Below are positions 28,477 to 55,272 of a stretch of 64,000 nucleotides of DNA, piece by piece. A model generated the notes under the pieces. It had not been told where the DNA came from. It made no database searches and worked only from the letters and a program-made list of their open reading frames with translations. The position numbers and the translations under genes are program-made. The DNA comes from Eledone cirrhosa (lineage: Eukaryota). The stretch is from NCBI GenBank assembly GCA_964016885.1, contig CAXHJY010000322.1, positions 133,029-197,028 on the forward strand. Reading direction: 5' to 3'. Numbering within the stretch: position 1 is the stretch's first letter; each line of letters starts with the position of its first letter.

Positions 28477-29414
28477 AGAACACTCCACCACTCACATCTA
28501 TATATCCTTTAAATAACGAAATAACGTTTACATTTCAACTCCAATATCATCCGTTATATTCTCTCCATCTCTATATTTTTGTTTTCTCTATCTCGATATA
28601 TATTTTCTCTACCTCCCTCTATATATATTTCTCCTTAATTTGCAATAGTGTTGCTGTTTCTTCCGGATCCGGAAGTAGAAACCCCACCACCACCTACCAC
28701 CGAACAAACGAAATATCCTTAATAGTCTCATTACATTTCCAATCGCTACTTGATTATGAAATTTTCTACTCAAATTGTAGCCAATATCGATCCTATCTGC
28801 TATGTATAGCCAAACATATACCTAAGCAATGGCATTGCTATTCAACGAACTATATAGCCTGCGGCCATTTTTGCGAACAGAACAGTGTTTCAATATATAT
28901 AGCAAAGCAAATAGTAATAAATAAATGAATAAATAAATGAATAAATGGCTACTGTCCGGTCTATACAATATGAACATTTTGCCTATACCTTCTGGAGTTA
29001 ATTACATTCCTTCTTGCTTACGAATTTCACTTATGAAGCAATAAATGGCGCATTTCATTGCTCCATTTTTATTTTTTATTTTATTGGGATTTTTCTTGTT
29101 TTGTTGTTTTGTTTGTTGTTATATTTTTTTTTCATATTCATTTTCGTTATTTAACAAATAACTATATAGCTTATAGTAGATGTCGTCTGCTTCTTTGAAT
29201 AGGAACTTTTAAGAGTGAAGCAACATGGCAGCTATAAATTTACCATTTCCATCATGTTAATACAGTAATAACATATACACTAATGTGTTATTTCTACTTG
29301 AAGCTATTTAGCTGGCTTGTAATTACGTAAGTATATATATATATTCTGACTGTCATTTATATTAATACATTTCACAGCACAATCACCATATATTATATAT
29401 ATATATATATATAG

Positions 29415-29699
29415 ACCTGTGCGAAATTCCTTCCTTGCTCACATTTCAACCAGGTTTGATGGTCTTTATTATCTCGTTCACGATTTCACCAAATTTATAT
29501 TCATAGAAATCTGGGACTTGTCTCTTTCTTCATCACTTTCTGTTGCTTAAACCATTTTGTTTGTTTACCCTAGCGTCCCCTTTATTTACGTGTCCCAACG
29601 ACTTTTTTTAGCCGTTGCTCGCACCAACCTGAGGTATATGGTCTTTAAAGCGATGAAATGCCTATGACGGTTGGAAGGCCACTGATGAAGGACAAACTT

Positions 29700-29703
<4 letters not shown>
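29415..29703 (+). mobile_element. Penelope-pLTR/retrozyme-like fragment between (TA)n tracts
   Basis: TA-flanked island whose 3' part is homologous to the motif in the 497-bp repeat at 41325-42216. Contains CTGATGA. Confidence 0.5.
29591..29694 (+). ncRNA. Candidate pseudoknotted hammerhead-like ribozyme with K-turn, variant A
   Basis: ATA|TGGTCTT, GAAA and CTGATGA plus helices covarying with 41564-41666 (see findings). Confidence 0.55.
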
Positions 29704-30097
<394 letters not shown>

Positions 30098-31297: not shown

Positions 31298-31420
31298 TTG
31301 GTTGTCCATCGTAAAGGATGATGACATCTTTATTGTTGTTCCCGTCTGCCATGGGCACGAAGGTGGCTGTGGAGGTCCTGCGACAGTGGGGGCAGGGGAA
31401 GAGACCGGAGTCAGGTCCGG
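31298..31420 (-). mobile_element. 3' terminus of an RTE-clade LINE
   Basis: The minus strand reads ..LFPCPHCRRT/LHSHLRAHGRREQQ*, followed by a short 3' UTR GTCATCATCCTTTACGATGGACAACCA. Confidence 0.7.
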
Positions 31421-34400
31421 CGACAGTGGGGGCAGGGGAAGAGACCGGAGTCAGGTCCGGGGACAGTGGGGGCAGGGGAAGAGACCGGAGTCAGGTCCGG
31501 CGACAGTGGAGGCAGGGGAAGAGACCGGAGTCAGGTCCGGGGACAGTGGGGGCAGGGGAAGAGACCGGAGTCAGGTCCGGGGACAGTGGGGGCAGGGGAA
31601 GAGACCGGAGTCAGGTCCGGGGACAGTGGGGGCAGGGGAAGAGACCGGAGTCAGGTCCGGGGACAGTGGGGGCAGGGGAAGAGACCGGAGTCAGGTCCGG
31701 CGACAGTGGAGGCAGGGGAAGAGACCGGAGTCAGGTCCGGGGACAGTGGGGGCAGGGGAAGAGACCGGAGTCAGGTCCGGGGACAGTGAGGGCAGGGGAA
31801 GAGACCGGAGTCAGGTCCGGGGTCAGTGGGGGCAGGGGAAGAGACCGGAGTCAGGTCCGGCGACAGTGGAGGCAGGGGAAGAGACCGGAGTCAGGTCCGG
31901 GGACAGTGGGGGCAGGGGAAGAGACCGGAGTCAGGTCCGGGGACAGTGAGGGCAGGGGAAGAGACCGGAGTCAGGTCCGGGGACAGTGGGGGCAGGGGAA
32001 GAGACCGGAGTCAGGTCCGGCGACAGTGGAGGCAGGGGAAGAGACCGGAGTCAGGTCCGGGGACAGTGGGGGCAGGGGAAGAGACCGGAGTCAGGTCCGG
32101 CGACAGTGGAGGCAGGGGAAGAGACCGGAGTCAGGTCCGGGGACAGTGGGGGCAGGGGAAGAGACCGGAGTCAGGTCCGGGGACAGTGAGGGCAGGGGAA
32201 GAGACCGGAGTCAGGTCCGGGGACAGTGGGGGCAGGGGAAGAGACCGGATTAAGGTCCGGGGACAGTGGGGGCAGGGGAAGAGACCGGAGTCAGATCCGG
32301 GGACAGTGGGGGCAGGGGAAGAGAGCGGAGTCAGGTCCGGGGACAGTGGGGGCAGGGGAAGAGACCGGATTAAGGTCCGGGGACAGTGGGGGCAGGGGAA
32401 GAGACCGGAGTCAGATCCGGGGACAGTGGGGGCAGGGGAAGAGAGCGGAGTCAGGTCCGGGGACAGTGGGGGCGGGGGAAGAGAGCGGAGTCAGGTCCGG
32501 GGTCAGTGGGGGTAGGGGAAGAGACCAGAGTCAGGTCCGGGGACAGTGGGGGCAGAGGAAGTGACCGGAGTCAGGTCCGGGGACAGTGAGGGCAGGGGAA
32601 GAGACCGGAGTCGGGTCGGGGGACAGTGGGGGAAGAGGAAGAGACCGGAGTCAGGTCCGGGGACAGTGGGGGCAGAGGAAGAGACCGGAGTCAGATCCGG
32701 TCCGGAGACAGTGGGGGCAGAGGAAGAGACCGGAGTCAGGTCCGGGGACAGTGAGGGCAGGGGAAGAGACCGGAGTCAGGTCCGGGGACAGTGGGGGCAG
32801 GGGAAGAGACCGGAGTCAGGTCCGGGGACAGTGGGGGCAGAGGAAGAGACCGGAGTCAGGTCCGGGGACAGTGAGGGCAGGGGAGGAGACCGGAGTCAGG
32901 TCCGGGGACAGTGGGGGCAGAGGAAGTGACCGGAGTCAGGTCCGGGGACAGTGGGGGCAGGGGAAGAGACCGGAGTCAGGTCCGGGGACAGTGGGGGCAG
33001 AGGAAGAGACCGGAGTCAGGTCCGGGGACAGTGAGGGCAGGGGAAGAGACCGGAGTCAGGTCCGGGGACAGTGGGGGCAGAGGAAGAGACCGGAGTCAGG
33101 TCCGGGGACAGTGGGGGCAGAGGAAGAGACCGGAGTCAGGTCCGGGGACAGTGGGGGCAGGGGAATAGACCGGAGTCAGGTCCGGGGACAGTGAGGGCAG
33201 GGGAAGAGACCGGAGTCGGGTCGGGGGACAGTGAGGGCAGGGGAAGAGACCGGAGTCAGGTCCGGGGACAGTGAGGGCAGGGGAAGAGACCGGAGTCAGG
33301 TCCGGGGACAGTGGGGGCAGAGGAAGAGGCCGGAGTCAGGTCCGGGGACAGTGGGGGCAGGGGAAGAGACCGGAGTCAGGTCCGGGGACAGTGGGGGCAG
33401 AGGAAGAGACCGGAGTCAGGTCCGGGGACAGTGGGGGCAGAGGAAGAGACCGGAGTCAGGTCCGGGGACAGTGGGGGCAGGGGAAGAGACCGGAGTCAGG
33501 TCCGGGGACAGTGAGGGCAGGGGAAGAGACCGGAGTCGGGTCGGGGGACAGTGAGGGCAGGGGAAGAGACCGGAGTCAGGTCCGGGGACAGTGAGGGCAG
33601 GGGAAGAGACCGGAGTCAGGTCCGGGGACAGTGGGGGCAGAGGAAGAGACCGGAGTCAGGTCCGGGGACAGTGGGGGCAGGGGAAGAGACCGGAGTCGGG
33701 TCGGGGGACAGTGAGGGCAGGGGAAGAGACCGGAGTCAGGTCCGGGGACAGTGAGGGCAGGGGAAGAGACCGGAGTCGGGTCGGGGGACAGTGAGGGCAG
33801 GGGAAGAGACCGGAGTCAGGTCCGGGGACAGTGGGGGCAGGGGAATAGACCGGAGTCAGGTCCGGGGACAGTGAGGGCAGGGGAAGAGACCGGAGTCGGG
33901 TCGGGGGACAGTGAGGGCAGGGGAAGAGACCGGAGTCAGGTCCGGGGACAGTGAGGGCAGGGGAAGAGACCGGAGTCAGGTCCGGGGACAGTGGGGGCAG
34001 AGGAAGAGACCGGAGTCAGGTCCGGGGACAGTGGGGGCAGGGGAAGAGACCGGAGTCAGGTCCGGGGACAGTGGGGGCAGAGGAAGAGACCGGAGTCAGG
34101 TCCGGGGACAGTGGGGGCAGAGGAAGAGACCGGAGTCAGGTCCGGGGACAGTGGGGGCAGGGGAATAGACCGGAGTCAGGTCCGGGGACAGTGAGGGCAG
34201 GGGAAGAGACCGGAGTCGGGTCGGGGGACAGTGAGGGCAGGGGAAGAGACCGGAGTCAGGTCCGGGGACAGTGAGGGCAGGGGAAGAGACCGGAGTCAGG
34301 TCCGGGGACGGTGGGGGCAGAGGAAGAGACCGGAGTCAGGTCCGGGGATAGTGGGGGCAGGGGAAGAGACCGGAGTCAGGTCCGGGGACAGTGGGGGCAG

Positions 34401-35912
34401 AGGAAGAGACCGGAGTCAGGTCCGGGGACAGTGAGGGCAGGGGAAGAGACCGGAGTCAGGTCCGGGGACAGTGGGGGCAGAGGAAGAGACCGGAGTCAGG
34501 TCCGGGGACAGTGGGGGCAGAGGAAGAGACCGGAGTCAGGTCCGGGGACAGTGGGGGCAGGGGAATAGACCGGAGTCAGGTCCGGGGACAGTGAGGGCAG
34601 GGGAAGAGACCGGAGTCGGGTCGGGGGACAGTGAGGGCAGGGGAAGAGACCGGAGTCAGGTCCGGGGACAGTGAGGGCAGGGGAAGAGACCGGAGTCAGG
34701 TCCGGGGACAGTGAGGGCAGGGGAAGAGACCGGAGTCAGGTCCGGGGACAGTGGGGGCAGAGGAAGAGACCGGAGTCAGGTCCGGGGACAGTGGGGGCAG
34801 AGGAAGAGACCGGAGTCAGGTCCGGGGACAGTGGGGGCAGAGGAAGAGACCGGAGTCAGGTCCGGGGACAGTGGGGGCAGGGGAATAGACCGGAGTCAGG
34901 TCCGGGGACAGTGAGGGCAGGGGAAGAGACCGGAGTCGGGTCGGGGGACAGTGAGGGCAGGGGAAGAGACCGGAGTCAGGTCCGGGGAGAGTGGGGGCAG
35001 GGGAAGAGACCGGAGTCAGGTCCGGGGACAGTGGGGGCAGGGGAAGAGACCGGAGTCAGGTCCGGGGACAGTGGGGGCAGGGGAATAGACCGGAGTCAGG
35101 TCCGGGGACAGTGAGGGCAGGGGAAGAGACCGGAGTCGGGTCGGGGGACAGTGAGGGCAGGGGAAGAGACCGGAGTCAGGTCCGGGGAGAGTGGGGGCAG
35201 GGGAAGAGACCGGAGTCAGGTCCGGGGACAGTGGAGGCAGGGGAAGAGACCGGAGTCAGGTCCGGGGACAGTGGGGGCAGGGGAAGAGACCGGAGTCGGG
35301 TCGGGGGACAGTGAGGGCAGGGGAAGAGACCGGAGTCAGGTCCGGGGACAGTGGGGGCAGGGGAAGAGACCGGAGTCGGGTCGGGGGACAGTGAGGGCAG
35401 GGGAAGAGACCGGAGTCAGGTCCGGGGACAGTGGGGGCAGGGGAAGAGACCGGAGTCGGGTCGGGGGACAGTGAGGGCAGGGGAAGAGACCGGAGTCAGG
35501 TCCGGGGACAGTGAGGGCAGGGGAAGAGACCGGAGTCAGGTCCGGGGACAGTGGGGGCAGGGGAAGAGACCGGAGTCAGGTCCGGGGACAGTGGGGGCAG
35601 GGGAAGAGACCGGAGTCGGGTCGGGGGACAGTGAGGGCAGGGGAAGAGACCGGAGTCAGGTCCGGGGACAGTGGGGGCAGGGGAAGAGACCGGAGTCAGG
35701 TCCGGGGACAGTGGGGGCAGGGGAAGAGACCGGAGTCAGGTCCGGGGACAGTGGGGGCAGGGGAAGAGACCGGAGTCAGGTCCGGGGACAGTGAGGGCAG
35801 GGGAAGAGACCGGAGTCAGGTCCGGGGACAGTGGGGGCAGGGGAAGAGACCGGAGTCAGGTCCGGGGACAGTGGGGGAAGGGGAAGAGAGCGGAGTCAGG
35901 TCCGGAGACAGT
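31381..35912 (+). repeat. 40-bp G-rich minisatellite (~113 units) GGACAGTGGGGGCAGGGGAAGAGACCGGAGTCAGGTCCGG
   Basis: Direct tandem array with variant blocks and one 5-bp phase shift at ~32700. Confidence 0.99.
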
Positions 35913-41033: not shown

Positions 41034-41563
41034 ACCTATATATATATATACACCCTATATATATACATACACACCATATATATATATACACACCCTATAT
41101 ATATATATATATACACACCCTATATATATATATATATATATACACCCTATATATATATATACACACCCTATATATATATATATATATACATCCTATATAT
41201 ATATATACACCCTATATATATATATATACACTCCATATATATATATACACCCTATATATATATACACTATATATACATATATACACACTATAAATATATA
41301 TATATACACCCTATATATATATATTCACACTTTCACTCACTCACTGTTTTTCTCCCTCTTCTCTTCATTTCATCCTGCACTCACGGACGCTATTTTTTCT
41401 CTCTCTGCTCAATGGCCTTCGTTCGTGCTGGACTATTCTTTCCCTAGCGCTCATATATTCACCTAGCTTACGCTAACAGAATATTTTTTGAAGCTTGTTT
41501 CTCTCCCACGGTATGCTATCTTTTCTGTTGTTCTCCTGTCTCAGTAGCTTTACGCGTTTTAAT

Positions 41564-41666
41564 TGTCCTAATAACTTATTTTGGTTATTATTGCACCGAA
41601 GTGAGATATATGATTTTTAATGCAATGAAATATCTATGATCTTCGGCAAATCACTGATGAGGGACG
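41564..41666 (+). ncRNA. Candidate pseudoknotted hammerhead-like ribozyme with K-turn, variant B (intact core)
   Basis: ATA|TGATTT at 41608-41616, GAAA at 41627 and CTGATGA at 41654. Six pairings are conserved with variant A. Confidence 0.55.
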
Positions 41667-42060
41667 TATTTTATTACATGTTACCATGTGCTACCTGCAG
41701 TATTTTTCTCTATATTTTAATACATATATTTACCACTGCGATTCTGTGTTTTTTTCTCTCTCTCTTACTGTTCCCCCATTCTCTCTGTTTCTCCCCCTCT
41801 GTCTTGTCCGTTAACTCTTCCTCACACTTTCACTCACTCACTGTTTTTCTCCCTCTTCTCTTCATTTCATCCTGCACTGACGGACGCTATTTTTTCTCTC
41901 TCTGCTCAATGGCCTTCGTTCGTGCTGGACTGTTCTTTCCCTAGCGCTCATATATTCACCTAGCTTACGCTAACAGAATAATTTTTGAAGCTTGTTTCTC
42001 TCCCACGATATGCTATCTTTTCTGTTGTTCTCCTGTCTCACTCGCTTTACGCGTTTTAAT

Positions 42061-42163
42061 TGTCCTAATAACTTATTTTGGTTATTATTGCACCGAAGTG
42101 AGATATATGATTTTTAATGCAATGAAATATCTATGATCTTCGGCAAATCACTGATCAGGGACG
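42061..42163 (+). ncRNA. Second copy of variant B with core mutation CTGATGA>CTGATCA
   Basis: Identical helices with a single core change. Confidence 0.45.
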
Positions 42164-42214
42164 TATTTTATTACATGTTACCATGTGCTACCTGCAGTAT
42201 TTTTCTCTATATTT

Positions 42215-42251
<37 letters not shown>

Positions 42252-54303: not shown

Positions 54304-55193
54304 TCACACTTTCACTCACTCACTGTTTTTCTCCCTCTTCTCTTCATTTCATCCTGCACTCACGGACGCTATTTTTTCTCTCTCTGCTCAATGGCCTTCG
54401 TTCGTGCTGGACTATTCTTTCCCTAGCGCTCATATATTCACCTAGCTTACGCTAACAGAATATTTTTTGAAGCTTGTTTCTCTCCCACGGTATGCTATCT
54501 TTTCTGTTGTTCTCCTGTCTCAGTAGCTTTACGCGTTTTAATTGTCCTAATAACTTATTTTGGTTATTATTGCACCGAAGTGAGATATATGATTTTTAAT
54601 GCAATGAAATATCTATGATCTTCGGCAAATCACTGATGAGGGACGTATTTTATTACATGTTACCATGTGCTACCTGCAGTATTATTCTCTATATTTTAAT
54701 ACATATATTTACCACTGCGATTCTGTGTTTTTTTCTCTCTCTCTTACTGTTCCCCCATTCTCTCTGTTTCTCCCCCTCTGTCTTGTCCGTTAACTCTTCC
54801 TCACACTTTCACTCACTCACTGTTTTTCTCCCTCTTCTCTTCATTTCATCCTGCACTCACGGACGCTATTTTTTCTCTCTCTGCTCAATGGCCTTCGTTC
54901 GTGCTGGACTGTTCTTTCCCTAGCGCTCATATATTCACCTAGCTTACGCTAACAGAATAATTTTTGAAGCTTGTTTCTCTCCCACGATATGCTATCTTTT
55001 CTGTTGTTCTCCTGTCTCACTCGCTTTACGCGTTTTAATTGTCCTAATAACTTATTTTGGTTATTATTGCACCGAAGTGAGATATATGATTTTTAATGCA
55101 ATGAAATATCTATGATCTTCGGCAAATCACTGATCAGGGACGTATTTTATTACATGTTACCATGTGCTACCTGCAGTATTTTTCTCTATATTT

Positions 55194-55197
<4 letters not shown>
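54304..55197 (+). mobile_element. Duplicate of the 497-bp partial tandem repeat (motifs at 54543-54645 and 55040-55142)
   Basis: Nearly identical to 41325-42216. Confidence 0.6.

Positions 55198-55272
<75 letters not shown>

Follow-up and report, generated by a model that had tools for sequence, protein, structure and literature searches.

Hammerhead ribozymes whose conserved blocks run in the order cleavage site, GAAA and CUGAUGA (S-G-C) are known as type SGC (Eckert et al. 2023, PMC10085705); in the available part of that paper they are reported from metatranscriptomes only, and how the far end of stem III connects to the stem I/II region is left unexplained. We analyzed a stretch of 64,000 nucleotides (nt) from Eledone cirrhosa (assembly GCA_964016885.1, contig CAXHJY010000322.1, positions 133,029 to 197,028, forward strand), hereafter the window, in which a kink-turn (k-turn) motif at positions 29624-29674 is built into a predicted hammerhead with this block order. 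The k-turn probably acts as a built-in architectural elbow, folding largely in Mg2+ alone and turning the chain back to stem I.

Published systems are taken here as described in the available parts of the cited texts. In its 3-nt bulge, its tandem G.A/A.G pairs, its C:G pair at -1b:-1n and its non-Watson-Crick 3b:3n, as well as in its placement in a helix that must turn back to a distant contact, the motif is like the ion-folding k-turns Kt-7 and SAM-I (PMC4382518, PMC8191799, PMC5061560). Unlike them, it extends stem III of a predicted small self-cleaving ribozyme, and among its copies A:G at 3b:3n is found in only 8 of 100, U:U being the commonest state (all counts out of 100 refer to the first 100 listed of 10,446 genomic matches, all on contig C1). 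The box C/D k-turn of small nucleolar RNAs (snoRNAs; PMC5689011, PMC5579392) shares with it UGA cores on both strands, U:U in 42 of 100 copies and, in one subfamily, U:U together with G:C, but here G:C at -1b:-1n is absent, and 3b:3n, 4b:4n and L3 vary by subfamily. Type SGC hammerheads (HRIMA-1 and its variants; PMC10085705) have the same block order and full core, a short linker between stem I and the G block and covarying stems I and III, whereas here a k-turn arm joins stem III to stem I, and stem II consists of a single pair that opens on a junction. A k-turn was also joined to a small ribozyme in the engineered HHV-Kt and Twister-Kt (PMC9521606), in which it was designed in as a purification handle outside the natural fold.

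The carrier of the ribozyme can be compared with two kinds of element. Animal non-LTR (long terminal repeat) retrozymes (PMC7229834; bioRxiv 10.64898/2026.07.22.740005) are likewise non-coding tandem repeats with one hammerhead per unit and thousands of copies, and they have been proposed to be non-autonomous Penelope-like derivatives (bioRxiv 10.64898/2026.07.22.740005); theirs is a type I hammerhead in units of ~150-450 base pairs (bp), whereas the present repeat combines units of 493-806 nt with a k-turn-bearing SGC hammerhead. Naiad Penelope-like elements (Craig et al. 2021, PMC8557442) are alike in their (TA)n targets and in their tandem and inverted insertions, and the tails of Naiad_Obim and Naiad_Ovul, read by eye, hold the same SGC fold; in the available text, by contrast, Naiad elements were reported to be without canonical hammerheads, Naiad_Ovul being marked HHR_half_core. 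The literature searched, which covers few subscription papers, yielded no description of a natural hammerhead containing a k-turn, and the available part of PMC13725137 makes no mention of SGC or k-turns. The k-turn and the SGC order are each known; what is new, judged by these comparisons, is that they occur together, with a split stem II, in an animal retroelement.

A kink-turn motif within a predicted, rearranged hammerhead

The host structure of the k-turn is a predicted 102-nt hammerhead with its blocks in the non-circular S-G-C order and its core intact. Its parts are listed below, with percentages of paired cells and two-sided changes taken from an alignment of 33 sequences picked to span the subfamilies.

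29592..29623, + strand: 5' leader completing the split stem II, made of the helix a 5' strand (29592-29595), hairpin b (29596-29617), the helix c 5' strand (29619-29622) and linker A
29624..29629, + strand: non-bulged strand of the k-turn NC (non-canonical) helix, pairing with 29669-29674 (6 pairs; 97.5% of cells paired; two-sided changes at 3 pairs)
29630..29632, + strand: k-turn 3n (U, 29630), which takes all four bases among copies, and G2n and A1n (29631-29632; G in 100/100, A in 98/100)
29633..29637, + strand: 3' strand of hammerhead stem III, which is the k-turn C (canonical) helix, with the -1n G at 29633; pairs with 29658-29662 (98.2% of cells paired; two-sided changes at 2/5 pairs)
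29638..29639, + strand: predicted cleavage site, after A29638 (AUA triplet), placed by analogy with hammerhead numbering and type SGC (PMC10085705)
29639..29645, + strand: stem I strand, forming a pseudoknot with 29675-29681 (93.1% of cells paired; two-sided changes at 4/7 pairs)
29650..29662, + strand: G block, with the helix c 3' strand (29650-29653), U11.1 (29654), GAA (29655-29657) and the stem III 5' strand (29658-29662)
29663..29668, + strand: k-turn bulge L1-L3 UAU (29663-29665), G1b and A2b (29666-29667; G in 98/100, A in 100/100) and 3b (C, 29668), which takes all four bases among copies
29669..29674, + strand: bulged strand of the k-turn NC helix, running without a linker into stem I
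29675..29693, + strand: C block, with the stem I 5' strand (29675-29681), the CUGAUGA core (29682-29688), A10.1 (29689) and the helix a 3' strand (29690-29693)

The region 29624-29674 has the signature of a standard k-turn, namely a 5-bp helix, a 3-nt bulge, tandem GA/GA and a 6-bp helix. In k-turn nomenclature this copy, called A, has C:U at 3b:3n, G:C at 4b:4n and C:G at -1b:-1n, with the pairs G1b:A1n and A2b:G2n. An earlier note on this DNA had read A and a variant B, and its letters proved exact for both; B lies at 41596-41646, and more B copies are found at 42093-42143, 54575-54625 and 55072-55122, which makes four in the window. That the motif is a k-turn of the standard kind was supported at the level of sequence, with the bulge, the tandem GA/GA and both flanking helices present. 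The isolated 51-mers of A and B each fold into both helices (A, z -3.77, 0/200 shuffles as good; B, z -2.31, 9/200 shuffles as good). The nearest-neighbour folding model pairs A1n with the U at L1 and does not leave the k-turn open; this pair is not conserved, because L1 is U in only 36/100 copies.

The G and C blocks are not joined by an uninterrupted stem II: only 10.1:11.1 pairs, and the remaining strands pair with the 5' leader. This single pair, which is A-U in 21 and G-U in 12 of the 33 aligned sequences, opens on a four-way junction. In the leader, two-sided changes occur at 4/8 pairs of hairpin b and 1/4 pairs of helix c, while helix a is invariant and fixed by the search pattern; stems I and III, the two expected to covary in type SGC, have covariation support (4/7 and 2/5 pairs with two-sided changes). 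Over the whole 35-pair structure 96.4% of cells are paired and 14/35 pairs have two-sided changes, against 28-51% paired in slid controls. Further pair types in the alignment were no more numerous than in shuffles, a comparison in which related sequences may beat shuffles even without structure.

At the predicted cleavage site, position 17 is A in 86/100 and C in 14/100 copies, G being barred there by the search pattern. Distinct 5' ends of insertions fall within -8 to +10 of the predicted cut in 7 of 149 cases, where ~5 are expected, at loci chosen for whole ribozymes. Rfam at gathering scores gave no match anywhere in the window.

Conservation in the genome and in older families

The genome (3.0 Gb) was searched with a pattern that fixed no base of the bulge, the GA pairs, 3b:3n or the NC helix and was in this sense blind to the k-turn; it gave the 10,446 full-length matches, while the reversed pattern, used as control, gave 0. 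The number is a lower bound, since the pattern misses a further subfamily. In that subfamily (G000:C1:22558602-22558662 and similar copies) A replaces U before the GAAA block and the NC helix is a different one.

The earlier note had named loss of GA/GA among copies as what would speak against the motif, and such a loss is not seen: GA is intact in 98/100 copies on the non-bulged strand, in 98/100 on the bulged strand and on both in 96/100. The pair -1b:-1n is C:G in 99/100, although neither base is fixed by the pattern, and L3 is U in 81/100 and G in 17/100. Other positions are far more variable, 3b:3n being U:U in 42, U:G in 21, C:U in 9, C:C in 9, A:G in 8, A:A in 7, G:A in 3 and U:A in 1 of 100. 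Among 18 recurrent haplotypes (each seen at least twice, 73 copies together) the four GA purines are constant, and L1, 3b and 3n each take four bases. The bulge and the adjoining 3b:3n pair thus vary by subfamily, and the flanking helices covary (98.2% of cells paired in the C helix and 97.5% in the NC helix). From these patterns we take the motif at 29624-29674 to be genuine and conserved.

A looser pattern that required the GA bases, with the main family excluded, gave 383 matches against 48 for its control and pointed to older families, a palindromic family and chance rows having been dropped by eye. The palindromic repeat, which has a variable central spacer (L145-L171), matched the loose pattern and is unrelated to the ribozyme; it was excluded from the counts. 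Two older families, H and J, were re-searched with k-turn-blind patterns. Family H gave 27 matches (control 0), with G2n in 22, A1n in 24, G1b in 24 and A2b in 25, and family J gave 18 (2-4 of them truncated or unrelated upstream; control 0), with G2n in 12, A1n in 13, G1b in 13 and A2b in 16. Both GA are intact in 18/27 H and 6/18 J matches, reflecting decay; GA/GA, U at L3 and U:U at 3b:3n are the majority states in both families, on helix sequences that differ from those of the main family, and -1b:-1n is mostly U:A in H and U:A or C:G in J. All families have the same element lengths (a stem III of 5 bp, the k-turn, an NC helix of 6 bp and a stem I of 7 bp), and GAA and CUGANGA lie 27 nt apart in the main family, in H and in most of J. 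Lone old copies of more S-G-C families (L157, L178-L182), found with the GA-requiring pattern, have the same k-turn spacing and other helix sequences.

We also read by eye the Naiad tails in the supplement of PMC8557442, covering 30/62 places of one core motif, 15/25 of another and 19 entry ends. The S-G-C order was read in nine tails. The octopus tails Naiad_Obim and Naiad_Ovul show the same k-turn (bulge AAU or AGU, GA/GA, U:U) with the 27-nt spacing, and six S-G-C tails lack GA/GA and show plain bulges or loops of 1-7 nt. One tail, near supplement part 12, allows a drawing in which GA/GA comes with a bulge of 5 nt on the other strand, a reversed k-turn-like element. The presence of a plain bulge or a k-turn at one place resembles the exchange of k-turn and pk-turn in RNase P (PMC5061560). 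An exact pattern modelled on the octopus Naiad tail had 0 matches in the Eledone genome.

Folding class and probable role of the elbow

According to the published folding rules, a Watson-Crick 3b:3n pair blocks ion folding while C at 3b or G at 3n favours it (PMC8191799, PMC4382518, PMC5689011), and U:U at 3b:3n gives intermediate ion folding that is very impaired when 4b:4n is G:C (PMC5689011). Box C/D k-turns conserve precisely U:U at 3b:3n plus G:C at 4b:4n (PMC5689011), and G:C at -1b:-1n is largely a box C/D trait (PMC8191799, PMC4382518, PMC5689011, PMC5061560, PMC5579392). Sorted by these rules, 44 of the 100 copies have 3b=C or 3n=G, 25 have U:U with C:G and 15 have U:U with G:C; the remaining ones are A:A or G:A (10), U:U with a mismatch (1), Watson-Crick (1) or broken in GA (4). 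Watson-Crick 3b:3n was seen in 1/100 copies where 20 would be expected if the two bases were independent, and in 0/18 haplotypes against 4.9, which is suggestive of avoidance in few lineages. The inverted G:C pair at -1b:-1n occurs in 0/100. Genome-wide, 1,849 copies, including long arrays, carry G at L3 with C at 3b, and 1,969 carry the box C/D-like set of U:U with G:C at 4b:4n.

These counts do not bear out the label 'box C/D-type' of the earlier note: A has C:U at 3b:3n, B has U:U but C:G at 4b:4n, the box C/D combination is limited to 15/100 and inverted G:C at -1b:-1n is absent. The box C/D class was rejected, because the U:U and G:C conservation that it requires is lacking and because the expectation that copies fold with protein only disagrees with what is seen at -1b:-1n (G:C 0/100) and 3b:3n (3b=C or 3n=G 44/100, Watson-Crick 1/100). 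The box C consensus is RUGAUGA, and the box C-like strand here does not extend to the full consensus. On its bases, the copy at 29624-29674 is of the 3b=C type and not of the box C/D type. Most copies should, by the published rules, fold at least partly in Mg2+ alone, and therefore the role of the k-turn is likely architectural. A single obligatory protein contact is argued against, because the G-L3 and box C/D-like designs were both amplified.

The connectivity indicates what this architecture could be. The bulged strand passes through the bulge and the NC helix and enters stem I without a linker (29674 to 29675), and the NC-helix partner strand is one base from the helix completing stem II; through this connectivity of both strands, the NC helix connects stem III with the distal ends of stems I and II. 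With the blocks in S-G-C order, the strand that exits stem III does not close a loop but has to arrive at stem I, and the turn that this needs would be supplied by the k-turn. Together, k-turn and NC helix would form a return arm which, with the split stem II, may keep stems I and II joined, a task usually done by a loop-loop contact. Calculated on helix axes only, with 2.8 Å per pair and an angle of 50 degrees, the kink places the NC end 19 Å beside the core end of stem III, and a 7-bp stem I spans 19.6 Å. The return of the chain from stem III to stem I, as proposed in the earlier note, is thus supported by the connectivity, the fixed helix lengths and this crude axis calculation. Modulation by a host protein, which the note had added, is not needed to explain the conservation; Snu13/15.5K or another L7Ae-family protein could bind and stabilise the elbow and would likely not be required.

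Several points weigh against an architectural elbow that folds largely in Mg2+ alone. In H and J the majority state is U at L3 together with U:U at 3b:3n, which both octopus Naiad tails show as well, and U:U is found in 42/100 main-family copies; in these states the motif resembles protein-bound k-turns more closely than SAM-I. For binding by 15.5K, the U at L3 is of importance. Copy A itself carries G:C at 4b:4n, an impairment to ion folding, and the copies with U:U and G:C (15/100; 1,969 genome-wide) are of a type that folds very poorly in ions in PMC5689011. The copies are related, so that counts are not independent events, and the GA bases of H and J have decayed about as much as their neighbours and are informative only through the ancestral state. 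A stem I parallel to stem II leaves a gap of up to ~17 Å for helix radius or fraying to fill. One Naiad tail, by eye, has a near-straight 15-bp extension with a 1-nt bulge, and because of it the sharp bend may not be universal.

An elbow that host 15.5K/Snu13 is required to fold, the protein switching cleavage or ligation on and also clamping and protecting the monomer ends, is possible but unlikely. It would account for U at L3 with U:U as the older majority state in H (26/27, 26/27 and 24/27), in J and in both octopus Naiad tails, and for the 1,969 copies with the box C/D-like U:U and G:C; every k-turn tested folds upon L7Ae binding (PMC5689011), Eckert et al. propose a helper protein for slow type SGC ribozymes (PMC10085705), and after the cut the box C-like strand would lie ~25 nt from the monomer 5' end and the box D-like one 6 nt from the 3' end, in a snoRNA-like arrangement. 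On the contrary, G:C at -1b:-1n (0/100) and the Watson-Crick 3b:3n by which U4 forces protein dependence (1/100) are practically absent, 3b:3n is U:G, C:U, C:C, A:G, A:A or G:A in 57/100 copies, the G-L3 lineage was amplified to 1,849 copies and the other Naiad tails, by eye in the available supplement, are without GA pairs. An evolutionary form of this idea, in which an ancestral Naiad-derived hammerhead mimics a small nucleolar ribonucleoprotein, is unlikely too: it would recruit 15.5K/Snu13 to fold the return arm, gating self-cleavage and clamping the box C-/D-like monomer ends for circularisation, and younger subfamilies would have escaped through changes at 3b:3n and L3. If it were true, the subfamilies would be a natural series from protein-dependent to protein-free ribozymes.

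It is also conceivable, at a very low probability, that the tandem G.A pairs form without a canonical k-turn, as a sheared-pair platform for another tertiary contact or for dimerisation of neighbouring repeats. The signal recognition particle Alu has such pairs without the k-turn conformation (PMC5579392), some Penelope-like element hammerheads act as dimers (according to the title of a cited paper), the axis geometry is crude and the repeats are tandem; what speaks against a platform is that all k-turn features occur together, namely the 3-nt bulge, C:G at -1, U or G at L3, Watson-Crick avoidance and fixed lengths. That GA/GA conservation is mere shared ancestry of a young repeat, without structural role, is highly improbable: with 46/102 alignment columns invariant, an invariant dinucleotide is unremarkable within the main family, but the bases flanking the GA pairs vary freely while the GA pairs do not, and H and J share GA/GA and spacing on different helix sequences.

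The carrier repeat, its surroundings and significance

Three stretches of the window belong to the repeat that carries the ribozyme.

29412..29710, + strand: 5'-truncated copy of a 627-nt non-coding repeat, subfamily A, between (TA)n runs; 97% to the monomer from L012, covering -227 to +72 around the predicted cut
41325..42230, + strand: subfamily B repeat with two ribozymes 497 nt apart, at 41565-41665 (core intact) and 42062-42162 (CUGAUCA)
54304..55209, + strand: duplicate B repeat, with ribozymes at 54544-54644 (core intact) and 55041-55141 (CUGAUCA)

The second ribozyme of each B dimer, with its CUGAUCA core, is likely inactive, and the two dimers, 12,979 nt apart, represent a local duplication. 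In the genome the ribozyme repeats are non-coding, with a period of 493-806 nt and one hammerhead per unit, and occur singly or in tandem, in arrays that reach 9 units and more. They lie between (TA)n runs, often with inverted partial copies. Their 3' ends are stereotyped, at +66 to +73 in 64/198 segments and at +100 to +130 in 116/198, followed mostly by (TA)n, while their 5' ends are scattered (198 segments from L001-L144, L195-L202 and the window, overlapping loci unmerged). By the mechanism that we propose, the predicted ribozyme would cut tandem transcripts of this non-autonomous retrozyme-like repeat into monomers of 0.5-0.8 kb, four helices would keep the cut ends paired, which would favour circularisation, and the monomers would be copied into (TA)n by a Penelope-like element.

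A chimeric insertion (L195, G000:C3:76779000-76786600) lies between (TA)n runs and joins two B repeats, one inverted and one in sense orientation that begins at the predicted cut, to a Penelope-like 3' half, with no internal (TA)n. It looks like a template switch and suggests, as a single case, that a Penelope-like reverse transcriptase (RT) can copy the repeat RNA. An abundant Penelope-like family (L203-L232) has frames of up to ~745 amino acids, with RT followed by a C-terminal GIY-YIG-like region (by eye), and ends in (TA)n; in 29/30 of its loci a minimal type I hammerhead-like core lies ~1.3 kb past the match. As an autonomous partner with the same ribozyme this family was rejected, since the 29/30 loci carry that type I core instead. 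Six short Naiad-like protein motifs had no match in the genomic loci retrieved beside ribozyme copies. In the sequencing-run search no RNA run was listed, and three contig runs from a single sample contain roughly half of the words, which is uninformative on expression; in a metagenome scan with a loose motif, 0/118 stretches passed the S-G-C structure screen, among the matches listed.

Elsewhere in the window, 29753-29975 holds a fragment that matches the beginning of a Penelope-like sequence, one found after the repeat in L003 too, with an inverted repeat around 29886-29920. At 31373-35912 there are 113 copies of a G-rich 40-nt unit, and 35912-64000 is a TA-rich satellite of ~28 kb with a unit near 21 nt. 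Several diverged L1/Tx1-like copies (endonuclease, RT, zf-RVT) lie in 1-28000; their frames were considered as possibly related to the k-turn motif and discarded, no link being found.

A k-turn followed by a return helix of fixed length would be a concrete answer to the problem of how stem III connects to the stem I/II region in S-G-C hammerheads. Since seven states of 3b:3n and two of L3 occur among the subfamilies in a single scaffold, their cleavage rate would be a direct readout of k-turn folding rules and of L7Ae dependence. Potential uses include an L7Ae handle for structure solution and a natural chassis for protein-controlled ribozyme switches. For the Penelope-like elements themselves, the presence of this predicted fold in octopus Naiad tails may be relevant to the ribozyme reported as missing from Naiad elements.
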